From NCBI GenBank assembly GCA_965217195.1, contig CBDCHL010000003.1:1437260-1501259 (forward strand): a stretch of DNA of 64,000 nucleotides, in the 5' to 3' direction. The number at the start of each line of letters is the position of its first letter. Within the stretch, counting starts at the first letter, position 1. A program made the translations under genes and the position numbers. Of the stretch, positions 8,412 to 63,516 are shown in pieces. A model generated the notes under the pieces. The model searched no databases and was not told where the DNA came from. It saw nothing but the letters and a program-made list of their open reading frames with translations. This DNA comes from Bryobacterales bacterium. Lineage in GTDB: Bacteria; Acidobacteriota; Terriglobia; Bryobacterales; UBA6623.

Positions 8412-10631
8412 ATGCCGGACATCAAAATATCCGATAACATTTCACTGCCCATCGACGTCAAACCGAACGGTTCTCTTTCGAAATACCTCAAAAATCCTCT
8501 ATCGCTTCTCACCGCGTTTTCCCTGGATACGCCGCTTCTGAAAACTCCGCTGAAGTCTTTGCGCGGCGGCCTCAAGCTGAAAAAGAGCGTCGATCTGCTC
8601 GATCAGGGCGCGTCGAAGGCGGAGTTAAAGCTGAAGGCTTCGGTGGAACAAAGCGTCGGCCTGCGGTTGTTCAAGGCCGGCGATAATGTCTTTGACGACC
8701 ATTTCGGGGGACCGGCGGTATTGCGGGGCTCGGCGGCGAAGGATTTGTCGCCGCTGAAGGTTCCCCAGGGCAAGGCCGTTCTGGCTTTCGACCTGCGGCC
8801 GGAGGTTCAGGTGGGCGTCGAGGGTAAAGCGGGACCGTTGAGCTTTGGGGCGGCCAAGAGCAAGACACTGACGTTCGCCAATTACAGAGAGTTCGATGTC
8901 ACGGACACAACTCCCTCGGTCGGGAAAGCGATTTCCGAGACGGTGAAGGAGTTTGTGATTCCGTCAAAACTTGCGGACCTGAAGAAGATCCCCGGAGCAA
9001 CGACGGTCACGGTGGATTCCGCCGGCGAACTGAAGTTTGAAGGGGGACTCAGCTTCTCGGGGGCTCCGAAGCCTTTCGCGAGCCTTAACGTCCCGCGGTT
9101 ACCGGATCCCATCGAAGTGAAGGTGGGGGCCAAGGTAGGAGTCAGTGGGAAGTTTCGGCTCTTCAGTGAGTATCAACTACGCATTTGGAGAGACGAGAGG
9201 AGCCACAAAATACGGCTGGGCTATTACAAGATGAAGGGCCGCGAAACCACGGTCACGGTGACGGCCGAAGCGGCTCTGAAGGTCGGGACGGGGAACCGGA
9301 GCGCGACGGTTGAATTGTTGCGGCTGGCGGGCGGCAAGAAGGCCGTGAACGAGAAGCAACTCACGGACGCCGGGCTGCGGCCGGCGCGGATTAAGGAGAT
9401 TGCCAAAGTTGTCGAGAGCGGGATGAGCCGCAAAGTGGAGGCGAGTCTCGCCGCTTCGTTCCGGAGGCTGAAGAAAGGCTCGGCCGCGTTCCTGTTCGAG
9501 ATCGACCTGGAAGCGTTGGACTCGGCCGGCAAGCAGGCCGTGCGGCGAGCGCTTCGGAAGGACATCTCCGGGCTCGGGGACGGCGACCGCGTCAAGTCGC
9601 CGAACGGAGTCAAGGTTCTACGGAGCATTTTCCGAGAGGTCAGCGAAGAGGAAAGGTCGGTAAGGATCAATCTGTTCGGGATCTTCAACTACATCTCGGT
9701 GAGCAAGCTTCTCAAAGACAGCCAAATTGTGAATACTCCGGGCGGCGAGTTTGCGATTGTCGACAAAGTAACCTCGACGCAAACCAAAGCCAACTTGAAC
9801 AACCTCAAGAAAGGCGACAAGGCGCTACGTCACTTGATGGACGAGGCGATGCTGGTGACGGCGATTTATCGAGGCGCGCGCCATGCGGTCGGGGCACCGG
9901 ACTTGGACTCCAGTTACACGTATTTCGAGCTGCATCGCAAGACGGGCCGGCAGCGGATGAAGGACAACCTGGACGTGGCAGCGGCTCTGGGTCTGATCAC
10001 CAAGCCGAAGCAGCGGGAACTGCTGGGCGAGGAGAAGAACTTCGGAGTCTCGACGTTCTATATAGAGAGAACCTTCAACGACAGCGAATTTCGGTCTATG
10101 TTTGTCAGCGAGGGTGTGGGCAACAACGGCAAGACGAGAACGGCGTCGCAGTTCGACAAGGCCGGTCTACGGGCTCTCGGGGCCTTGTACGCGGGAGACG
10201 AGAATAACGAGGATCGTTGGCGCGTGATGAATAAGAACTGGCTCGCACTCAAGACGGCCCCGGCATTGGGGGCCGTGGAGGCAGTGGGGAGACGCAAAGG
10301 CCTCAGCGAAACCCAAAGCAAGCTGATGGGGGTGGAGGTGAGCAAAGTCATCACGTGGCGAGAGGCCATGCTCGATCTTGCAAAGGTTCTGCAGGAGGCC
10401 GAACCGTACTTTCAAGAGGGCGCCAAAGACCCCGACGAGGAAGAGTTCAAGAAACTCCAAGGGAGCCTAAGAAAGAAGGTCGGGGAAGTGGCGAAAGAGG
10501 CTCGCGCGCAATGGGGTGATCCCTGGGGAATCGTGGCCTTTCATTTCCTGGCGGGCGGGAAGGGTTTCAAGAAAGTCAAGGTCACGGGCGACAAGTTGGA
10601 GCTTGGGGTCAGTAAGGAGCGGGCAGCGTAA
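8412..10631 (+). CDS. hypothetical protein, 739 aa, Lys-rich, no recognisable domain
   Basis: Long uninterrupted frame. I place the start at ATG 8412 (MPDIKISDN) because the upstream 41 codons (SEKAAASSSPTLRSRRPRLW) look non-coding. No signal peptide. The N-terminal half has alternating beta-like patterns and the C-terminal half looks helical. Confidence 0.7.
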   Translation: MPDIKISDNISLPIDVKPNGSLSKYLKNPLSLLTAFSLDTPLLKTPLKSLRGGLKLKKSVDLLDQGASKAELKLKASVEQSVGLRLFKAGDNVFDDHFGGPAVLRGSAAKDLSPLKVPQGKAVLAFDLRPEVQVGVEGKAGPLSFGAAKSKTLTFANYREFDVTDTTPSVGKAISETVKEFVIPSKLADLKKIPGATTVTVDSAGELKFEGGLSFSGAPKPFASLNVPRLPDPIEVKVGAKVGVSGKFRLFSEYQLRIWRDERSHKIRLGYYKMKGRETTVTVTAEAALKVGTGNRSATVELLRLAGGKKAVNEKQLTDAGLRPARIKEIAKVVESGMSRKVEASLAASFRRLKKGSAAFLFEIDLEALDSAGKQAVRRALRKDISGLGDGDRVKSPNGVKVLRSIFREVSEEERSVRINLFGIFNYISVSKLLKDSQIVNTPGGEFAIVDKVTSTQTKANLNNLKKGDKALRHLMDEAMLVTAIYRGARHAVGAPDLDSSYTYFELHRKTGRQRMKDNLDVAAALGLITKPKQRELLGEEKNFGVSTFYIERTFNDSEFRSMFVSEGVGNNGKTRTASQFDKAGLRALGALYAGDENNEDRWRVMNKNWLALKTAPALGAVEAVGRRKGLSETQSKLMGVEVSKVITWREAMLDLAKVLQEAEPYFQEGAKDPDEEEFKKLQGSLRKKVGEVAKEARAQWGDPWGIVAFHFLAGGKGFKKVKVTGDKLELGVSKERAA

Positions 10632-10707
10632 GTCCAATCTGAGTGCTCGGTTAGGGAGCGTTCTCGGGCACGTCCTCCGCTCGGGTTATGGGTGAAACGG
10701 CGACCGG

Positions 10708-11727
10708 CTACCCGCAGCCGCCCATATTGCCGAATTGGTCACGGTCCTTGCTCCAGCCCAAGGCTCCATCTTGCGTCCTGACCTGGCCCCACCAAACTCC
10801 CCAAAGGGCTTCCGGAGTCGGAACGGGACGGAGATACTCGCCCCAGCAGCGCTTGTCGGGAAACGGGCAATGCTCGTGAATGTCGCCCGAGACGCTTAAT
10901 TCGAACACCTTTCCCTTGACCCAAACTCGCCCGATGCCTTCCCCGAGACGGTCCAGAAGGAAAACGATGGAACCCGCTTTGATCTCGGAATACCCGGGCG
11001 GGTGGCGAACAACCACGGGAATGGGTCTGATGTGTACTTCGCCGGTGAGTCCTTCGACTTTTTCCCCTTTGCGAATGTGTCCAACGACGGTTTGACTGTT
11101 GGGTTTGTCGAAAAGCACGGTATCGGCGAGGACGTCCCAGGTGCGAAACAGACAGCATTCGAACGGACAAGCGTCCTTGGCAATGTACCGTGATGGAGGT
11201 TTCCGGTTGGAGGGCATGCCGTCGAGCTGTTGTTGAAACTGTTGTTTTCGCTCAGCCAGGCGGGTCCGGTCATCGGCGAGGGTTTTCGCGAGCGCGGACT
11301 GTCGGAACGTTGGAGTCTTGGTCAGCGGGTGAAGGGCGTTCCCCTCGGTGCGAAGCCGCCGATCGATTTCGTTGTTCTTTTTGTCGTAGAGATATTCCAG
11401 GATCGCGACGGCCTCGGTGTTGCTGCCGATTTCCACGTAGAACTCGGCCAAGTAAAACCACAAATGGCGGCTTCGGCATTGGCGCCGAATCATCTCTTTG
11501 CGGACGGCGATGACGCCGTCATGATCGCCCGCCTTCATGGCATCATCGTTTCGGCGGTTGAGCGCGCGCTGGGCGGCCATGAAACCGGGGGTGAGTTGAG
11601 TGCGGACTTGGCAGGGACCGCCGATGAGTTTCTGTTCCAGGCTAAGGTGCGCGGGCTGGGCAGGAAGGGAAGGCGCGGTCGCGATGAGTAGGGCGGCGGA
11701 GGGGAGGATTCCGGAAGGCTTGAGCAT
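10708..11727 (-). CDS. hypothetical secreted protein (339 aa, Cys-containing C-terminal beta domain)
   Basis: Signal peptide MLKPSGILPSAALLIATAPSLPAQP, a TPR-like helical middle, and conserved Cys clusters CPFECC and HCPFPDKRCW. Confidence 0.75.
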   Translation of the reverse strand: MLKPSGILPSAALLIATAPSLPAQPAHLSLEQKLIGGPCQVRTQLTPGFMAAQRALNRRNDDAMKAGDHDGVIAVRKEMIRRQCRSRHLWFYLAEFYVEIGSNTEAVAILEYLYDKKNNEIDRRLRTEGNALHPLTKTPTFRQSALAKTLADDRTRLAERKQQFQQQLDGMPSNRKPPSRYIAKDACPFECCLFRTWDVLADTVLFDKPNSQTVVGHIRKGEKVEGLTGEVHIRPIPVVVRHPPGYSEIKAGSIVFLLDRLGEGIGRVWVKGKVFELSVSGDIHEHCPFPDKRCWGEYLRPVPTPEALWGVWWGQVRTQDGALGWSKDRDQFGNMGGCG

Positions 11728-19699: not shown

Positions 19700-20551
19700 C
19701 TAGCCTGCGGCTTTCCATCCGTCTCTAATGTGACGGATACCCATCACGGCGACGTCCTCTTCCTTCTCAAAGAACGGGCGCCATAGGTGCAAAGGCTGAA
19801 TGAGTCCGGGGACTTTCAGCCCGAACGACTCGATGGTCAGCCAGCGGTCATAGCCCGATTTGCGCAGGCTCTGAAACACGTCGGGCCGTACCGCTTGTCC
19901 CTGACCGGGGACGCCGCGATGGTTCTCGGAGATGTGGACGTGGAAGATGTGATCGGCAACCGCGGTCCAGGCGCGGCCGGTGCGGTTTTCTTCGATGTTC
20001 GAGTGATGCGTGTCCGCCAGTAGCCCTACGTTCGACATGTCCACGTCGCGGCAGAAGCGGGCGGCGGCGCGGACGGTGTTCGTCAGAAACATTTCGAAGC
20101 GGTTCAGGGGTTCCACAGCCAAATCGACGTGCATCGATGCGGCGTGCTCGGCGGCTTCACGAATCACTCCGACACCGCGCTGCCACTCGTCTTTTGTTGG
20201 ACCCGCCCCGGTAAAGCGCCCCAAACCCGCCTGAAAAGGTCCCACCAGGACGCGCGCTCCGAGATCGCGCGTCTTGTCGATGCTGCTCTTGATCAGATCG
20301 ACGGCGGCTTGGCGTAGCTTCGGGTCGGGGCTTAGAGGATCGGCTTGGTCGGCGCCGTAGGCCAGCAGGGTTGTGCGTCCAAGGCCGAGATTGTCCAAGA
20401 GCTTGGCGGAGTCACGGACTTCTTCATCACTCATCGCGATGACGGGATATTCCACGCCGTCGAATCCCCACCCTTTGATCCTCTCGACCAGCGGGGCGTC
20501 GTTGGCGGTCGGGTGATCAGTCCACAGTAAGAGATTGATTCCGATCTTCAT
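19700..20551 (-). CDS. sugar phosphate isomerase/epimerase (xylose-isomerase-like TIM barrel)
   Basis: Start at ATG 20551 (GGAGGAG RBS; MKIGINLLLW). The 9 upstream codons in the ORF track lack an RBS. Confidence 0.85.
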   Translation of the reverse strand: MKIGINLLLWTDHPTANDAPLVERIKGWGFDGVEYPVIAMSDEEVRDSAKLLDNLGLGRTTLLAYGADQADPLSPDPKLRQAAVDLIKSSIDKTRDLGARVLVGPFQAGLGRFTGAGPTKDEWQRGVGVIREAAEHAASMHVDLAVEPLNRFEMFLTNTVRAAARFCRDVDMSNVGLLADTHHSNIEENRTGRAWTAVADHIFHVHISENHRGVPGQGQAVRPDVFQSLRKSGYDRWLTIESFGLKVPGLIQPLHLWRPFFEKEEDVAVMGIRHIRDGWKAAG

Positions 20552-24631: not shown

Positions 24632-24789
24632 AGATACAGAGCCCAGAGCGAAAGCGACGGGCCGAGGGCACATCGGTTCGAGCAGCAGGCAGACTGTGAA
24701 ATGCGCACAAAGTTCGAGCAGACGCGGTGCCGAAGCGCCTTGCAGTTGCCTGCCCTTGGCCCGTCGCTTTCGCTCTGGGCTCTGTATCT
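24632..24789. repeat. REP family 2, inverted pair (37-bp arms, 84-bp spacer)
   Basis: 24632-24668 agatacagagcccagagcgaaagcgacgggccgaggg matches the reverse complement of 24753-24789 with 1 mismatch. Confidence 0.85.
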
Positions 24790-44761: not shown

Positions 44762-44938
44762 TAGATTCAGAGCCCAGAGCGCAAGCGACGGGCCAAGCGC
44801 ACCGCAACCGCCACGCCTTCGAAACCACGTCACCCCGAGCAGTCACTTACTTAGGCACGCCTACGGGGCGGCGAGGGGCCGCGCACCGGCGAGGGGCCGT
44901 GCCCCGGCCCGTCGCTTGCGCTCTGGGCTCTGCATCTA
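44762..44938. repeat. REP family 2, inverted pair immediately upstream of the RAYT-like gene
   Basis: 44762-44794 tagattcagagcccagagcgcaagcgacgggcc matches the reverse complement of 44906-44938 with 1 mismatch. 111-bp spacer. Confidence 0.85.
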
Positions 44939-46612: not shown

Positions 46613-46792
46613 GATTCAGAGCCCAGAGCGCAAGCGACGGGTCGAGCGCACCGCAACCGCCATCCTGCAAAACCCACGTCACCCCGAGCAGTTGCTTGCT
46701 TAGGCATAGGCAGGGTCGCAGGCCGGCGCTGGGCCCTGTGCCGGGGTGTCCGCCAGCTCCGTTCCCGACGACTCGCTCACTCGTGGCTGAAC
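46613..46792. repeat. REP family 2 copy starting 1 nt after the RAYT stop, with a possible degenerate partner arm
   Basis: 46613-46641 gattcagagcccagagcgcaagcgacggg. The spacer is homologous to that of the 44762-44938 copy (gcgcaccgcaaccgcca...cacgtcaccccgagcag). The right arm near 46764-46792 is only weakly similar. Confidence 0.65.
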
Positions 46793-53067: not shown

Positions 53068-53226
53068 GGAATCAGCCTAACACCTACAGCTTTCCATGCA
53101 TTTCGCCTCGACACTTGGTGAAATATCCGGGTAGCCTGGGTTAGGCTAGGCCGGCCGCCGTCAAATGGCAAGAACGGCAGGACGGGTCCAGAGGATTCCC
53201 AATCGCAAACCGGCACAGCCATCTCC

Positions 53227-54531
53227 ATGAAACAAGCCATCGAACGCTACTTCGAATTCGGCAAGCTGGGGACCGGCTTCCGCACGGAAATCCTCGCGGG
53301 TGTGACGACGTTTCTGACGATGTCGTACATCATCTTCGTCAACCCGGCGATTCTGCGCGAGGCCGGCATGCCTCCGGCGGCAGTCGCGGCGGCAACCTGC
53401 TTGGCGGCGGCGCTGGGAAGCATCCTGATGGGCGTCTACGCTCGCTACCCCATCGCCTTGGCGCCGGGGATGGGGATCAACGCTTATTTCACCTACACCG
53501 TTGTGATCGGCATGGGCGTCCCATGGCAAACGGCGCTGGGAGCAGTGTTTCTGTCGGGCTTGGTCTTTTTGGGGCTCACGCTCGTGGGAGTGCAGCAGGC
53601 CATTGTGTCGGCGATCCCGAGAGATCTCTACGCCGCGGTGGGCGGCGGCATTGGATTGTTTCTCGCGCTGATCGGGCTACGGAACATCGGCCTGATCACG
53701 GCCCACCCGGCCACGCTGGTGACCCTGGGCGATCTCTCCAGCCCGGATACCTTACTCGGAATGTTCGGCTTGCTGCTGACAGCCGGTTTGCTGGCCTGGC
53801 GCGTGAAGGCGGCGATCGTAATCGGGATCGTAGCAACGACGGGCTTGGCGGCCCTATTCGGCCGTGTGCACAAGCAGACTTCCGCCGGGCTCGCGGAACT
53901 CGGCGCGGCCTGGGGGGAATTGGATATTGCCGCCGCGATGAGCCTGGGGTTGCTCGAAATCGTGTTCGTGTTTTGGTTCGTCGATCTGTTTGACAACATC
54001 GGGACGCTGGTCGCCGTCGGCAATCGGGCGCGTCTGTTTCCACAAAAGGGCGAGATCCCCCGCATCCGGCGCATCCTGCTTGCCGACGGGGCGGCAACTA
54101 CGTTTGGGGCCGTCTGTGGGACCTCGACCGTCGTGAGCTATATCGAAAGCGCGGCGGGCGTCGCCGCGGGCGGCCGCTCGGGGTTGTCGGCGGCCGTGGC
54201 GGGCCTGCTATTTGTCCTGTCGCTGTTCGCAGCGCCCTGGGTCGGCGTAATTCCCACCGCCGCAACTGCGCCCGCTTTGATCCTGGTCGGCTGCTTGATG
54301 ATGGCGACCGTCCGCGAGATCAATTGGGACGACATGGTTGTCGCCGTCCCGGCCTTTCTCACCATCGTGATGATTCCGCTCAGCTACAGTATCGCGAACG
54401 GGCTGGCAATCGGCTTCGTCAGTTTCACGGCACTGAAGGTTTTCCGCGGCCAAGGACGCTCGATTGGTTGGCTGGTCTACCTGTTGACCGCGCTGTTCAT
54501 CGCGAGGTTTCTGTATTTAGGGGCGGAGTAG
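53227..54531 (+). CDS. NCS2-family purine permease (AzgA-like adenine/guanine/hypoxanthine)
   Basis: MKQAIERYFEFGKLGTGFRTEILAGVTTFLTMSYIIFVNP is the characteristic AzgA N-terminus. 434 aa, polytopic. Confidence 0.92.
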   Translation: MKQAIERYFEFGKLGTGFRTEILAGVTTFLTMSYIIFVNPAILREAGMPPAAVAAATCLAAALGSILMGVYARYPIALAPGMGINAYFTYTVVIGMGVPWQTALGAVFLSGLVFLGLTLVGVQQAIVSAIPRDLYAAVGGGIGLFLALIGLRNIGLITAHPATLVTLGDLSSPDTLLGMFGLLLTAGLLAWRVKAAIVIGIVATTGLAALFGRVHKQTSAGLAELGAAWGELDIAAAMSLGLLEIVFVFWFVDLFDNIGTLVAVGNRARLFPQKGEIPRIRRILLADGAATTFGAVCGTSTVVSYIESAAGVAAGGRSGLSAAVAGLLFVLSLFAAPWVGVIPTAATAPALILVGCLMMATVREINWDDMVVAVPAFLTIVMIPLSYSIANGLAIGFVSFTALKVFRGQGRSIGWLVYLLTALFIARFLYLGAE

Positions 54532-54857: not shown

Positions 54858-55490
54858 TCACTCTCGAGACCCTGAAGCGGCTTCGTTGGGTTGCCAGAGC
54901 ACCTCTTCGGCCCCCAGTTTGACGCAGGCCCAGCGGCTCCACACGAACAACGCGTCGCTAAGGCGGTTCAAATAGCGCAGCGCCGTGCCTGGAACCTCTT
55001 CCGCGCGGCTCAGGGCGACCAGGATCCTCTCGGCGCGCCGGCAAACCGTGCGGCAGACGTGCAATTCCGCATTGAGGCGGCAGCCGCCGGGCAGCACAAA
55101 CGACGGCAGCGAGGCCAATTCGACATTGGCGCGATCGATCTCGCGCTCGAGCTGCGCGACGTCGGCCTCGGCGATTTGGGGCTGCTGCGGGCGCACCTGC
55201 TCCGGCTCGGTGGCGAGAATCGAGCCGAGGTTGAAAAGCTCGTGCTGCACGCGGAGCAGAATGCGTGATAGGTGCTCCATCGGCTTGCAATCCGCCGCCG
55301 CTTCGTCGGCCGAAACGCGCGCGATACCGATGAAGGAATTCAACTCGTCAACGGTCCCGTAGGCTTCGATGCGGAGATGATCCTTCGGGACGCTCGTGCC
55401 GCCTACCAAACTGGTTTCTCCGCTGTCGCCGCGCTTGGTGTAGATCCGGCTGAGGTTGACGGCGGGGTCTTTGTAGGCGGGGTCGGACAT
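54858..55490 (-). CDS. PduO-type ATP:cob(I)alamin adenosyltransferase
   Basis: Start at ATG 55490. IYTKRGDSGETSL and AYGTVDELNSFIG are the family hallmarks. The 86 upstream codons in the ORF track are not supported. Confidence 0.88.
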   Translation of the reverse strand: MSDPAYKDPAVNLSRIYTKRGDSGETSLVGGTSVPKDHLRIEAYGTVDELNSFIGIARVSADEAAADCKPMEHLSRILLRVQHELFNLGSILATEPEQVRPQQPQIAEADVAQLEREIDRANVELASLPSFVLPGGCRLNAELHVCRTVCRRAERILVALSRAEEVPGTALRYLNRLSDALFVWSRWACVKLGAEEVLWQPNEAASGSRE

Positions 55491-55744
55491 GTTGGAAAAA
55501 GCCGCGCGTAACGCTTGGGGCCTTCTACGTAAACCCGACCGCCCCATCACAATTATACCGGCCGAAGGACACGCTTTCCGCGTGCCCAGGGCGCCATTCT
55601 TGGCGACGAAATCCAAAGCGAGCGCGGCGTTCCGGCTGCCGTCAAGCTGCGCACGGCAGGCTCGAAGAGCCCCGCAGCCTTGGCCGGCGCTCCAAGCTCT
55701 CTCGCCGGCGTTCGACAGCCTGCTTGGCGAGCGCCGCCCCGTCC

Positions 55745-56275
55745 TCACTGCCCCGTCAATCGCACGACCAACTCCGCCAGCACTTCGTCCACCCGCTGCT
55801 CAATCTCCTCCCGAGTCTGGTCTTGAATCGGGTGCCGCACAAAGACCGCCTCATAGTCAGCGCGCCCTAAAGCCGCCGCCTGCGCGCGAGCCGCCGACGC
55901 GAAAACGTCGGTCGCGATCGCTGCCGTGGGAATGCCGAGGTTTTCGAATGTCACCGCATCGTGCAAACTGCACGTTGTGCAAGACCCTCAATCAGCCAGC
56001 GCCTCGATGACAGCATCAACGCCTGCCTGCTTCAAGCGATTCACGACGTTCTCAGGCGCCGGTTTGGCGAAAGTCGGCTTGGCGTCGCGCACAACCCGTT
56101 TGACACCGTGATCGTCCACAAGCCGTTGCTCGAGCCGATCAAGAAAGACGCTCCCACCGGGCTTGCTGATATCGAGCAGCCCAACGGTCGCGCCGTCAAG
56201 GCGCGTCAACCGCGCGGCAGGCGAGCGGTTCGGCCGCGCGGTTTCATCCAGTGGACTCACCAAAATCGTCGGCAT
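55745..56275 (-). CDS. UGSC-motif selenoprotein candidate (176 aa, in-frame UGA at 55988-55990 read as Sec)
   Basis: ORFs 55988..56275 and 55745..55966 share one frame and are separated only by a TGA plus 7 sense codons: ...GVDAVIEALAD-U-GSCTTCSLHDAVTFENLGIPTAAIATDVF. The coding character continues on both sides of the TGA. Confidence 0.7.
55960..55974 (-). promoter_or_regulatory. candidate SECIS stem-loop
   Basis: The mRNA reads UGA GGGUCUUGCACAA CGUGCA-GUU-UGCACG: a perfect 6-bp stem starting 13 nt after the UGA. An overlapping alternative is UUGCAC-AAC-GUGCAG. Confidence 0.45.
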
Positions 56276-56332
56276 GATATTCCTCCCTAGTTCGGGCCCC
56301 GTTCCAAAGCCGCGGGAAATTTCATCACGTAG

Positions 56333-56362
56333 CTACAGAGCCCCGAGCGAAAGCGGCGGTCC
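56333..56362. repeat. REP family 2, diverged single arm
   Basis: ctacagagccccgagcgaaagcggcggtcc, located between the thioredoxin-fusion gene and the selenoprotein gene. Confidence 0.5.
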
Positions 56363-56460
56363 CGGCGGCCCGGCGCAACCGGGAAGGGCCGACCCCCATT
56401 CGGTTCTCTTCGTCCGGTCGGCAAAACCCGGGTGTCTGTCGCACCACGTCTCGGCCCTAT

Positions 56461-58074
56461 CTACCGCTGTCGAATCGGGTACGTCACCATTTGGCTCCCC
56501 CGCGGCCCCGCGGCCCACGAACCCAACACGGCCGAAAACTTCCCCGCGTCGCCGCCCGCAACCATGAGATGAATCGCCTCCGGGCGACCGAACTTCCGAT
56601 AGCACGGCTCTCCGTCGATCACGATCTCCTCGTAGCGGGCGGTTGCTTGCGTTCCCTCGCCGCCGTCGTCGTTGTTATACGACCGCAGCGGAACCCCCGT
56701 ATGGTCAAACAGAAATTCGCGCACATCTTGCTTGGATAACCCGTCCCGCGCAATGGTGGCCGCGTGCTCGAGCCCGACAATTACTAAGGCCTCGTGGCTT
56801 CCACACGCACGCAACGTCCACACCGTGGCCAACGTGTGGCAAATCGTGCGCAAAACGGCCCGGGCGTCGCGCGCCGTGTGCTCGCTGACCGACCGGGGCG
56901 GCTCGGCAGCGTACATCGTGACGGCACTTTCGTCCGGATCGATGCCGCGCTCGATGTGCAGCGGCTCCCAAGGACTGTTTTCTTCGTTCTCGGCGATACA
57001 GAAACTAAAGCGGCCCGGGGTGCCCAGCGTCGACATGTCGATTTCGCCGGGGCGCGCCCCCCCGATATGAGTCAGCACCAGCTGAAACGCGCGGCCCAGG
57101 CTGCTGTTGGCGTGCGCGGTATTGCTGAAAACGCCGCTCCCGGAGACAAATCCCAGCTCTCGCCGGACCGGTCCATTGATGATCATCAACGGTGCCGCGA
57201 TATGGGTGGTCCCTTGCACCCCGTGCAGGTTGAACCGCTCGTCGCACGCCGCCCGCAACGCACTCATCAAGACCGGCATCATCTCGGGGCGGCACCCTGC
57301 CATCACCGCATTAGCCGCAACCTTCTCGACCGTCGCGAAGCCGTAGTTTGGCGGAACCTGGGCGACCACCCGGGTCGGCGGGAGCCCCGCGGCTTCGATC
57401 ATTCTCTCGACACGCGCCATCGTCGGCGGAACAACCGGCAGCGGATCGCTAAAACCCGCTTGGACGCAGATATCGAATAGGTCCTGTCCCTCGCTCACCT
57501 CTATGCGCGACGCGGGCGGCCCGTCCAGCGCATACAGATCGAGCGCCGAAGCCGCCTCGCCCTCGGTCACCTCCTCGCGATGTCGCGATACGCAACCCGG
57601 CTTGTTTTGAGGAACACCGTCGAAGGGGTCAGCGATCTCGACGGCTTCTTTGCCGATCAGCCCGCCGAGCACGACTGCCCATTCATTAAACGCCGCCTTC
57701 TCGAATCCCGTGTGCTGCCGAACAATGCGACCCTCCGCATCCACCAGGAAAAGAGTCGGAACCGCAAGCGGGTCATAGAGACGCGAGACCGAAAGATCCG
57801 TGTCAAGTACAACCGAAAAATCCATGCCCAAGCGCGAGACGATCTCGCGCGTAGGCTCGACGGGGTCTTGAGAGATACCGACTACGGCTGCCCTGTCGCC
57901 GAGCCAATCGGCAAGCCGTTTGAAATAGGGAACCGAAAGCCGGCACGAAGGGCAGTCGGTTTCGAAGAAAAACAAGATACCGGGTCGACCCGCGGTTTCG
58001 TCCGTCAGATTCCACGCCGTCCCGTCCAAGCGGCGCAGGGAGAATGGAGGAGCCTTTGTATCCAGGGCCGGCAT
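56461..58074 (-). CDS. TlpA/AhpC-like thioredoxin-fold domain (CPSC) fused to an unassigned ~370-aa domain
   Basis: N-terminal KAPPFSLRRLDGTAWNL...ILFFFETDCPSCRLSVPYF...PTLFLVDAEGRIV is a TlpA-type fold. The remainder (PPNYGFATVEKVAANAVMAGCRPEMMPVLMSAL...HGVQGTTHIAAPLMIINGP...) is conserved-looking, but I cannot name it. Confidence 0.85.
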   Translation of the reverse strand: MPALDTKAPPFSLRRLDGTAWNLTDETAGRPGILFFFETDCPSCRLSVPYFKRLADWLGDRAAVVGISQDPVEPTREIVSRLGMDFSVVLDTDLSVSRLYDPLAVPTLFLVDAEGRIVRQHTGFEKAAFNEWAVVLGGLIGKEAVEIADPFDGVPQNKPGCVSRHREEVTEGEAASALDLYALDGPPASRIEVSEGQDLFDICVQAGFSDPLPVVPPTMARVERMIEAAGLPPTRVVAQVPPNYGFATVEKVAANAVMAGCRPEMMPVLMSALRAACDERFNLHGVQGTTHIAAPLMIINGPVRRELGFVSGSGVFSNTAHANSSLGRAFQLVLTHIGGARPGEIDMSTLGTPGRFSFCIAENEENSPWEPLHIERGIDPDESAVTMYAAEPPRSVSEHTARDARAVLRTICHTLATVWTLRACGSHEALVIVGLEHAATIARDGLSKQDVREFLFDHTGVPLRSYNNDDGGEGTQATARYEEIVIDGEPCYRKFGRPEAIHLMVAGGDAGKFSAVLGSWAAGPRGSQMVTYPIRQR

Positions 58075-62633: not shown

Positions 62634-63516
62634 TAGGGTCGAGAACTGGCGCGGTGGCCCGTCAGGACGCCGGCTTGGCTGTATCCGGGGTTTCCCCCTT
62701 CGTGCCCGTTTAGCCGTGTCCGTAGCTCCGTCTCCAGCTCCCGCCACCTCGCACGCAGCGTGCGGATTTCCCGCACTACGCGCTCCTGCACACTTCGCGA
62801 CAAGATTTATGAGACCTATCCGGTTGGAGTTGCTTTCGACGATGGCCCTGGAGCCGTCACCCAGATTCAGGTGTCCGCTCCCACCATCGACTACTCCACC
62901 CCTTCCATCCGAAGCCTTGGCACGACGCCAAGGCCATTCAGCCTTCCTCTTGCCGTATAGTCCTGATCGCAGATCCTGCAGACTGCTGGACGCTTTTATC
63001 ATTCGTCCCTGCCTCACTGTTGTTGACCAAGACTTCACGTGCAGCAAGGTCCCATCGCTCCGCAGGCGTTACCCCGCTTCACCGCTACTACGAACCTAGC
63101 CGCCACCCTCTCGCCTTCCACCGACTTCCTGGTTGTCGCCAGTTATACGGCTTTCGTGCTCCGTCGATTTCGCGACGGGACGAGGAGGGCTTCTCCAGTT
63201 GCTTAGCATGCCCTTGTCACCGTGCTGTCCCTACCACCCCGCCGGAGTGACCTGGCGCCGCAGTCAGTTTGCGCCAAGTCATGCTGCCTTCGCCCGTGAT
63301 AAGGGGGCTCGGCCTCCGGGGTTTTAGCTTTTCGAGGCCACCTGTGGGTTCACTTCCGTTACGGCCCGGTGACTCGCTCACCATCCCAAGGATGGCTTTG
63401 TCGATTGGCTTCATCGGCTTCGTTTCCTCCACCGATGCAACTCAAGCTACGGGGCTCTGACTCTTACCCCGGTGGGACTGCCTCCCACTGAACATGCCAG
63501 CCTTCGCTGGACGCAC
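62634..63516 (-). mobile_element. group II intron, ORF-less/degenerate (RT gene almost entirely deleted); 3' boundary uncertain (62716 or about 62634)
   Basis: The minus strand starts GUGCG at 63516 (GTGCGTCCAGCGAAGGCTGGCATG...GGGTAAGAGTCAGAGCCCCG...). There is a remnant of an intron-encoded protein start (MIKASSSLQDLRSGLYGKRKAEWPWRRAKASDGRGGVVDG, compared with the usual SLQxLRxxIYxKAKAE...AKANxGAxGVDG). A domain-V-like hairpin GAGCGCGUA-GUGCGG-GAAAU-CCGCAC-(GC bulge)-UGCGUGC sits at about 62750-62785. Confidence 0.6.

Follow-up and report, generated by a model that had tools for sequence, protein, structure and literature searches.

Here we describe a pair of adjacent genes on the minus strand of a 64-kb stretch of Bryobacterales DNA (hereafter the window, i.e., the whole 64,000 nucleotides that were analyzed). 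The second gene of the pair, at 55745-56275, is identified by sequence comparison as a real UGSC-family selenoprotein gene with an in-frame UGA that is predicted to be decoded as selenocysteine (Sec) and with a conserved hairpin resembling a selenocysteine insertion sequence (SECIS). The first gene encodes a 537-aa protein consisting of an N-terminal thioredoxin (Trx) domain and a C-terminal domain, here named domain X. Our preferred, although tentative, interpretation is that the two genes form one thioredoxin-recycled, selenoprotein-B-like reductase system.

A UGSC-family selenoprotein gene with an in-frame UGA

The UGSC gene has the following features:

55745-56275, minus strand: UGSC family selenoprotein gene, 176 codons including the predicted Sec96, with the stop TGA at 55745-55747; from open reading frame (ORF) geometry and profile matches
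55988-55990, minus strand: TGA predicted to be read as selenocysteine (U96); the aligned column is TGA in genome and metagenome copies and Cys in full-length homologues
55970-55990, minus strand: U-G-S-C-T-T-C redox motif (UxxCxxC), i.e., U96-G-S-C99-T-T-C102; from alignment conservation
56282-56287, minus strand: GGGAGG ribosome-binding site, 6 nt 5' of the UGSC ATG; read from the sequence
55957-55977, minus strand, core stem 55960-55974: SECIS-like hairpin, nt 17-22 paired with nt 26-31 counted from the U of the UGA, loop G23 U24 U25; from comparative pairing

It was claimed in a first-pass annotation of this DNA that two small ORFs share one frame and are interrupted by a lone TGA, and the ORF geometry bears this out: the ORF at 55988-56275 (95 aa plus the TGA) is continued in frame by the ORF at 55966-55745, and the read-through product, ...EALAD-U-GSCTTCSLHD..., comprises 176 aa with the U at position 96. 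TGA is an ordinary stop codon in the Bryobacterales source, as the UGSC gene itself terminates at a TGA (55745-55747). The annotation had furthermore named the label UGSC family (seleno)protein, and this assignment holds, with both curated family cut-offs exceeded. Scored with Cys in place of U, the read-through sequence reaches 153.4 bits for NF041046 (NCBIfam; cut-off 125; profile positions 1-146 of 147 covered) and 168.6 bits for PF24696 (Pfam; cut-off 25; positions 3-171 of 172 covered), and both profiles span the UGA codon.

As expected for a selenoprotein, the UGA column holds either Sec or Cys in the homologue alignment and the conservation runs on downstream of it. The column is TGA in all 62 assessable related genome copies and in all of the approximately 118 metagenome loci found by the UGSC motif scan, and it is Cys in full-length homologues carrying DCGSCTSC, DCGSCSSC or DCGSCTSW, which gives the overall motif D-[U/C]-G-S-C-T-[ST]-[CW]. 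In the paired X/UGSC alignment U/C, G, S, C and T are invariant, and the residues G, S, C, T, S, H and D following the codon are invariant or nearly so. The third Cys of UxxCxxC is replaced by W in the subfamily in which UGSC precedes X and is therefore not shared by the entire UGSC family. Among 5.8 billion proteins searched, most matches were fragments of approximately 96-120 aa ending exactly at ...EALAD, which are gene calls cut off at the TGA; the others included full-length homologues of approximately 170-180 aa with DCGSCTSC. It is this comparison with related loci, not the folding energy of the RNA, that excludes chance. TGA-form cassettes are present, for example, in the complete metagenome-assembled genomes OY282457.1, OZ244620.1 and OZ247498.1. 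When a heuristic combining TGA, hairpin and open frame was run over the window, no credible selenoprotein candidate other than the UGSC gene was found.

A conserved SECIS-like hairpin downstream of the UGA

Two hairpins had been proposed for the mRNA after the UGA. The first, CGUGCA-GUU-UGCACG, lies at nt 17-31 from the U of the UGA, i.e., 13 nt past the codon, and pairing, covariation and codon bias identify it as the conserved SECIS-like element; the alternative, UUGCAC-AAC-GUGCAG, is not the conserved hairpin. In the window the additional pairs 14-34 and 15-33 can also form. As the folding energy by itself is unremarkable, with single-sequence z-scores of -1.6 and -0.3, the hairpin was examined comparatively.

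A set of 62 sequences, comprising 61 genome loci and the window, contains 58 distinct sequences. Pairs 17-31 through 21-27 form in 58 of 58 of these, and pair 22-26 in 54 of 58. C21-G27 is exchanged for G21-C27 in five genome sequences, and this change is compensatory: the switch of a Cys to a Trp codon (TGC to TGG) is matched in those five by GTG becoming GTC or ATC on the opposite side of the stem. G18-C30 becomes G-U in ten genome sequences. Sliding the 3' partner by 1-3 columns lowers the pairing from 78% to 7-54%, calculated for a 9-bp version of the stem. The codons within the hairpin are equally constrained. Ser+7 is encoded by AGT in 61 of 61 cases, a codon that makes up 7.6% of the Ser codons elsewhere in these genes, and Leu+8 by TTG in 28 of 29 (background 12.8%); Cys+6, which lies in the stem, is TGC in 56 of 56 and Cys+3, outside the stem, is TGC in 40 and TGT in 22; codon +5 is invariably NCG. 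The codon usage at the hairpin shows selection at the RNA level.

The second set was obtained by scanning metagenomes with a pattern that leaves the 3' half of the stem unconstrained, and it contains 114 distinct sequences. All six core pairs form in 97 of them, with pair 21-27 being CG in 89 and GC in 22. The loop bases G23U24 are present in 62 of 62 genome sequences and 110 of 114 metagenome sequences. Both the hairpin and its codon bias are absent from the two Cys-form UGSC genes with DNA available. A search of Rfam returned no match to the hairpin at the gathering threshold or at E<=10, which is not counted against it because the hairpin is only 15-21 nt long.

The Trx-X protein and domain X

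The gene upstream of the UGSC gene has the following features:

56461-58074, minus strand: gene of the Trx-X fusion protein, 537 aa; ORF
57697-58059, minus strand: Redoxin/AhpC-TSA thioredoxin-fold domain, aa 6-126; PF00578 and PF08534
57943-57954, minus strand: C41-P-S-C44 in the Redoxin domain; from the sequence
57586-57600, minus strand: linker motif P-G-C161-V-S between the Trx domain and X; from conservation in Trx-fused X proteins
56464-57567, minus strand: domain X, aa 170-537, unannotated; from family conservation
57421-57447, minus strand: domain X motif DxLPVVPPT (family form DGLPVVPPT); from conservation
57292-57312, minus strand: domain X motif NAVMAGC261; from conservation
57088-57114, minus strand: domain X motif xANxxxGRA, aa 321-329 (family form RANATIGRA); from conservation
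56980-57009, minus strand: domain X motif C359-IAENEE; from conservation

The N-terminal part had been described as a TlpA/AhpC-type thioredoxin fold with a CPSC motif, in agreement with Pfam matches that are limited to aa 6-126 (PF00578, 64.6 bits with a cut-off of 26; PF08534, 59.6 bits with a cut-off of 26.6). The domain stays under the cut-offs of all specific NCBIfam subfamilies, ResA, DsbE and StoA among them (for ResA 49 compared to 170). The window clade has CPSC where the usual motif is CPTC. The further claim that the C-terminal ~370 aa cannot be assigned to any family is likewise supported by Pfam, NCBIfam and Protein Data Bank (PDB) searches. When 46 diverse members of X were compared with Pfam and NCBIfam at E<=5, only scattered noise from single members and no family was obtained, and a profile search of the PDB with X found no sequence relative. 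An AlphaFold2 (AF2) model of X was predicted with a mean local confidence (pLDDT) of 91.3 and a predicted template modeling score (pTM) of 0.91, and a Foldseek search of the PDB with this model returned a best template modeling (TM) score of 0.27 and no match below E=1e-3.

The X family is large: at E<=1e-3 it comprises 4,930 representatives of clusters at 50% identity, and at E<=1e-30 still 1,131. Its members stand alone (~350 aa), carry a fused Trx (~530 aa) or a fused UGSC, or are tandem proteins (~710-740 aa). Five proteins of approximately 710-740 aa (P0269, P0273, P0304, P0327, P0350) contain two or three matched X stretches, and such tandem duplications may hint that X works as a dimer. 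Two near-invariant cysteines, C261 and C359, stand out together with many invariant charged residues, and C359-xAENEE-SPW-PLHVERG, PEHA and VAGG are conserved additionally. Of 39 X proteins with a fused Trx, 38 carry the linker motif PGCxS; all 23 unfused ones lack it. The 537-aa protein has 2,682 homologues; the 120 listed all share the architecture of ~530 aa, and their names, "TlpA family" or "peroxiredoxin", reflect the N-terminal domain alone. In general, source names of X proteins are "hypothetical protein" or refer to the Trx part only.

Genomic linkage of X and UGSC

It was proposed beforehand that co-occurrence in gene neighborhoods would be informative on whether the two genes belong together, and linkage is clearly present. 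It is seen from both sides and in gene fusions, which agrees with the earlier suggestion of a functional pair. Starting from X, one genome per species was scanned and the best 80 of at least 598 matched loci were analyzed. These loci span Acidobacteriota, Vicinamibacteria, Methylomirabilota/Rokubacteria, Binatia, Chloroflexota and Poribacteria and further Actinomycetes, Nitrospirales, and Alpha-, Beta-, Gamma- and Deltaproteobacteria. A UGSC gene is found in 62 of the 80; it nearly always shares the strand of X and usually follows X at a distance of 3-200 bp. For three of the 18 loci without UGSC, the sequence downstream of X is too short to judge. The UGSC-less X loci L016, L018, L019, L023, L029, L030, L033, L038, L040, L044, L049, L051, L067, L068 and L072 include Poribacteria, Vicinamibacterales and Rokubacteria.

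Starting from UGSC alone, metagenomes were scanned with a DNA pattern for A-x-x-D-U-G-S-C-T-[ST], which yielded 120 stretches, all with genuine UGSC genes. Among the 52 stretches with at least 600 bp on each side, 48 have X as the immediate same-strand neighbor, upstream of UGSC in 38 and downstream in 10; two more have X within 3.4 kb and two are without X. UGSC is moreover fused to X in 37 of the best 150 X representatives, in both orders: 24 of the fusions begin just after the Sec position and run into X, four have X first and then a UGSC part terminating at the Sec position, and nine are full-length proteins of the Cys-type UGSC-X form. In some fusions X is retained and the motif of the UGSC domain has been lost (HCGASSSW, EIGGSLFG). 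Thus, X is the constant partner of UGSC and the pair is a conserved module.

Thioredoxin modules and gene neighborhoods

A Trx domain with CPxC is fused to X in 38-39 of the 62 pairs, from Acidobacteriota to Gammaproteobacteria and Dehalococcoidia, and the Cys-form cassettes L202 and L203 show the Trx-PGCGS-X architecture as well. On megaplasmids of cultured organisms, Cys-form cassettes with an unfused X are found, several of them with thioredoxin-system genes in the cluster. The gene order is trxB-trxA-X-UGSC in Arthrobacter sp. ERGS1:01, LysR-X-UGSC-trxB in Roseovarius sp. THAF8 and trxB...SDR-X-UGSC in Variovorax sp. SRS16 (SDR: short-chain dehydrogenase/reductase). In haloarchaea, UGSC-X is followed by the gene of a TrxB-like flavoprotein in Haloterrigena turkmenica (L210), Natrinema (L205) has UGSC-X-DUF6282-NAD(P)-binding protein, and Halalkalicoccus (L209) has X on both sides of UGSC (X-UGSC-X). 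As these haloarchaeal megaplasmids carry Cys-form UGSC together with X, the cassette crosses the boundary between bacteria and archaea. The thioredoxin module recurs with X-UGSC in many lineages, albeit not universally.

No third conserved gene accompanies the module: the families encoded within 5 kb on either side of the 62 pairs are each seen in 10 loci at most. The commonest neighbors are luciferase-like monooxygenases (10 of 62), CaiB/BaiF CoA-transferases (8), SDRs (7), acyl-CoA dehydrogenases (6) and TauD-type dioxygenases (6). The cassettes lie in inducible catabolic islands that contain transporters, regulators of the LysR/IclR types, CoA-transferases and dehydrogenases, which suggests that the substrate is perhaps a small organic acid or amine.

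Predicted fold of UGSC and its relation to selenoprotein B

The fold of UGSC was judged on an AF2 model of a homologue of the window protein, the natural UGSC-X fusion P0363, which is predicted as one compact body (pLDDT 93.3, pTM 0.93). Its UGSC part consists of five alternating beta-alpha units, i.e., a flavodoxin-like (beta-alpha)5 arrangement, with the motif, here with a Cys equivalent to U, between beta3 and the N-terminus of alpha3. Foldseek matches of this part are the flavodoxin domain of flavorubredoxin, azoreductases, lumazine synthase and the response-regulator receiver (REC) domain. UGSC is thus predicted to be flavodoxin-like and not of thioredoxin fold. The placement of the motif as in thioredoxin-like proteins, assumed in the first-pass annotation, is not upheld by this model with the motif after beta3, and the Trx fold that both this annotation and the literature had assigned to UGSC (beta-alpha-beta-alpha-beta-beta-alpha with CxxC at the first helix) is contradicted by it. 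A profile search of the PDB with UGSC found no match.

Beyond its own family, the window UGSC protein matches only selenoprotein B models, namely GrdF (E=2.4e-5), TIGR01918, PrdB, GrdH and GrdB, and all these matches center on the Sec segment of the models. Of the 15 UGSC sequences that were aligned, including four N-terminal fragments stopping at the UGA, nine match GrdB and seven match GrdF. With scores far below the family cut-offs, UGSC is to be regarded as a relative of selenoprotein B and not as a member.

A proposed enzyme system and its alternatives

Taken together, we favor the interpretation that the two genes encode one thioredoxin-recycled, selenoprotein-B-like reductase system, and we rate it as plausible without calling it probable. 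X would be the substrate-binding catalytic subunit, contributing C261, C359 and its invariant charged residues, and UGSC would be a small flavodoxin-like subunit that docks onto X. The selenol of U96 might attack the X-bound substrate or an X-substrate adduct in the reductive step, a mechanism that is drawn from the analogy with PrdA/PrdB (PMC11229817), in which the large subunit holds the substrate for attack by the Sec of the small one, with subsequent re-reduction of the oxidized enzyme. C99 of UxxC would subsequently resolve the adduct to a selenenyl-sulfide, which the tethered CPSC Trx domain could reduce, perhaps via the linker residue Cys161, and the Trx domain would in turn be re-reduced by thioredoxin reductase and NADPH. 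A more far-reaching proposal is that X and UGSC constitute a new selenium-dependent enzyme class, composed of an X with novel fold, a mini selenoprotein-B-like subunit and thioredoxin, that catalyzes the Stickland-type reductive cleavage of a common small metabolite such as an osmolyte, an amine or an organic acid in aerobic bacteria of soils and oceans and, in the Cys form, in haloarchaea; this we consider possible but doubtful.

Several observations weigh against the reductase system. Approximately 20% of the X loci lack UGSC within 8 kb, even when scanned with hidden Markov models (HMM) that allow TGA read-through: in six-frame read-through translations of 17 loci (16 X loci and L001) no UGSC was found, and in such loci X may have other partners. 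L001, which harbors the closest genomic orthologue of the 537-aa protein (84% identity; ENA ERZ25766727, 6.9 Mb, 10001-11620), has no UGSC within 10 kb, which may reflect loss or relocation of the UGSC partner in this lineage. Position 321 is Arg in 104 of 114 motif-matched homologues but His in the protein from the window and in the two relatives closest to it (P0001-P0003). The scores for the selenoprotein B models TIGR01917, TIGR01918 and TIGR04483 are 17.4-23.1 bits with cut-offs of 65-800, and the homology is therefore limited to approximately 50-90 residues; X, in turn, is unlike the partners GrdE and PrdA, with no similarity to these or to any Pfam or NCBIfam family. Neither a fused nor a nearby Trx is present in 23 of the 62 pairs, with no separate Trx ORF near the unfused ones, and trxB is adjacent in only one of the 62 (61 loci of metagenome-assembled genomes (MAGs) and the window); presumably, a housekeeping thioredoxin serves these pairs. 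The 64-kb window yielded no tRNA, and its 20 largest ORFs, which were scanned, include no selA, selB or selD. Finally, a 2026 review still counts UGSC among the selenoproteins with largely uncharacterized function (PMC13188914).

In L001, an anti-sigma/STAS pair and mlaEFD lie downstream of the Trx-X orthologue. At 19724-20173 (minus strand) of the same locus, a 36-aa ORF follows directly on a 112-aa AhpC-TSA/Redoxin ORF of the same strand; the two may represent a further selenoprotein gene that the gene caller divided at a TGA.

Among the alternatives, a role of UGSC as mere electron shuttle comes foremost, with likelihood falling further from a pyruvoyl-type X through an antioxidant role to a plain stop codon. 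As a shuttle comparable to thioredoxin or selenoprotein A, UGSC would pass electrons from Trx via U96/C99 to a C261/C359 disulfide and X alone would do the chemistry. This would account for the two near-invariant cysteines of X and for a small UGSC with UxxC at a helix N-terminus as in redox carriers; it would also fit with the fifth or so of the X loci that lack UGSC, as X may then use other reductants, and with fused UGSC domains that have lost the motif while X stays. However, the detectable relatives of UGSC are the catalytic selenoprotein B proteins and not GrdA or thioredoxins, the near-obligate adjacency and the frequent covalent fusion would be odd for a diffusible carrier, and the presence of Sec instead of Cys in every adjacent MAG or metagenome copy examined is a better fit to a nucleophile than to a relay. 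We therefore regard the shuttle as unlikely, although it deserves serious consideration.

A second alternative takes the analogy to Stickland reductases literally and sees X as an analogue of PrdA/GrdE that cleaves itself before a Cys (e.g., G260|C261), with the resulting pyruvoyl group binding an amine that is then cleaved by Sec96. The subunit logic would match that of PrdA/PrdB (PMC11229817), UGSC matches the PrdB and GrdB models, X has a near-invariant A-G-C motif and invariant Arg, Glu and Asp residues that would suit an amino-acid-like substrate, and a thioredoxin system lies in the operon of cultured representatives, as it does in grd operons. Yet X shows no similarity to the Gly_reductase, PrdA and GrdE families among 46 members at E<=5, C261 is located in a short loop between two helices of the X model with no obvious strained cleavage site, no recurrent prdH-like maturase and no grdA, grdC or grdD is encoded nearby, and the host organisms are mostly aerobes, so that this variant appears improbable.

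The pair could also serve as an antioxidant or repair system, i.e., a peroxidase or a sulfoxide or disulfide reductase with Sec as peroxidatic or reducing residue and X as scaffold or specificity domain. In favor of this are the AhpC-TSA/Redoxin match of the N-terminal domain and the abundance of the cassette in marine and soil bacteria from oxic habitats, and bacterial selenoproteins without known function are mostly assumed to be thiol oxidoreductases (PMC2398784). The Redoxin domain is missing from a third of the cassettes, however, the neighbors are substrate-inducible catabolic genes, transporters and LysR/IclR regulators and not stress regulons, and a highly conserved domain of 350 aa with many invariant charged residues exceeds what a scaffold requires; we attribute only a small likelihood to this role. 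The reading of the TGA as a true stop or nonsense mutation, leaving two small ORFs or a pseudogene instead of a selenoprotein, could draw on the missing Sec machinery and tRNA-Sec in the 64-kb window (tRNA scan; 20 largest ORFs), the missing Rfam match and the unexceptional folding energy, but it is already refuted in practice by a TGA that is kept in approximately 180 loci of many phyla with protein conservation across it, by homologues with Cys at this column, by a hairpin that is specific to the TGA forms and shows covariation and codon constraint, and by a curated family model spanning the codon.

Intergenic spacer and surroundings of the gene pair

56276-56460, no strand: spacer of 185 bp between the Trx-X and UGSC genes, with one copy (56334-56355) of a dispersed 22-nt repeat
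24635-24656, 24765-24786, 44766-44787, 44913-44934, 46615-46636 and 56334-56355: copies of the 22-nt repeat; from BLAST and fuzzy matching

The two genes had been described as separated only by a copy of a repetitive extragenic palindromic (REP) element. One repeat copy is indeed present, but it is just one short repeat arm in a spacer of 185 bp, which is unusually long for such a pair. In related loci the gap is usually 3-200 bp. The repeat of approximately 22 nt, TACAGAGCCC[CA]GAGCG[AC]AAGCG, occurs in at least six copies in the window (BLAST and fuzzy matching), and two of its occurrences are inverted pairs approximately 110-130 bp apart, which gives them the look of miniature inverted-repeat transposable elements (MITE) or REP elements.

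After the UGSC gene, a gene for a PduO-type cob(I)alamin adenosyltransferase follows on the same strand (54858-55748, minus). Its ORF overlaps the UGSC stop; as the domain starts at residue 103, the real start probably lies further downstream. A strong hairpin, UAGCCUG-GGU-UAGGCUA at 53119-53165 (plus strand), is located just 5' of the gene of a 434-aa permease (53227-54531). It was flagged in the screen for TGA with hairpin and is probably a terminator or leader structure and not a SECIS. Near the end of the window, at 63354-63490 (minus strand), Rfam detects a group II intron D1-D4 (RF02003, 120.7 bits, E=1.7e-26).

Significance and comparison with known systems

The UGSC family has been known since the selenoproteome surveys of the Sargasso Sea and those based on Global Ocean Sampling (GOS) data, with its function unassigned (PMC2398784, PMC1976440, PMC9312934, PMC13188914). 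In the GOS data, 255 Sec and 21 Cys forms of UGSC were counted, which places it among the most abundant marine selenoproteins (PMC2398784, PMC1976440, PMC9312934, PMC13188914). Since 2005-2008, UGSC proteins have been counted among the commonest selenoproteins of ocean metagenomes, and Hyphomonas neptunium is reported to carry the selenoprotein (PMC1976440). The selenoprotein as such is therefore not new. A 2008 GOS paper notes a "UGSC/Unknown_1 fusion", in which Unknown_1 may be domain X. The searched literature that mentions UGSC contains no description of the cassette of X or Trx-X with UGSC, of how large and unannotated the X family is, of a flavodoxin-like fold or of kinship to selenoprotein B, and no report of 75Se labeling or mass spectrometry proving selenium incorporation was found in it for any UGSC member.

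New in the present analysis are a near-obligate partner, X, that belongs to a large and wholly unannotated family, a thioredoxin module that is repeatedly built in, and a Sec subunit that appears akin to the catalytic selenoprotein B of Stickland reductases. Thereby, an orphan selenoprotein becomes part of a defined and testable enzyme system, and experiments are feasible because cultured Arthrobacter, Roseovarius, Variovorax, Paracoccus and haloarchaea carry Cys-form cassettes. For genome annotation it follows that in thousands of entries of approximately 530 aa the name "TlpA family disulfide reductase" or "peroxiredoxin" covers no more than a quarter of the protein. If it exists, the new enzyme class would explain what one of the most abundant orphan families of selenoproteins in marine metagenomes does.

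Compared to the UGSC-containing protein of Zhang and Gladyshev, the window protein has the same length and motif column, exceeds both family cut-offs and is itself no different from the described family; the additions are its context and its predicted fold. The N-terminal 126 aa of the Trx-X protein resemble the TlpA/ResA/DsbE reductases in matching Redoxin/AhpC-TSA with CPSC at the expected site. Unlike in these reductases, the Redoxin domain of the window is fused to the cytoplasmic-looking domain X of 370 aa. For the hairpin, the SECIS of Escherichia coli fdhF, whose sequence was checked in 5,419 genomes, is the closest point of reference. Both hairpins follow soon after the UGA, place the loop bases G23/U24 at equal distance from it and have GCA/UGC at the top of the stem. 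In fdhF, G23 and U24 of the loop are contacted by SelB. The UGSC hairpin differs in its loop of 3 nt (GUN) from the 4-nt loop (GGUC) of fdhF, and no bulged U17 is evident in the window.

With regard to selenoprotein B systems, the hosts are different, being mostly aerobic soil and marine bacteria and haloarchaea for UGSC and amino-acid-fermenting anaerobes for selenoprotein B. Also, unlike in grd and prd loci, grdA, grdC, grdD, prdC and prdH are not found within 5 kb on either side of the 62 pairs. Three traits are shared: the UxxCxxC motif is common to GrdB, GrdF, GrdH, PrdB and the window UGSC, the small Sec subunit is encoded beside a larger catalytic partner, as X is predicted to be, and thioredoxin-system genes lie in or beside the operon, as seen in the cassettes of cultured organisms. 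In analogy, grd operons also carry trxB-trxA.

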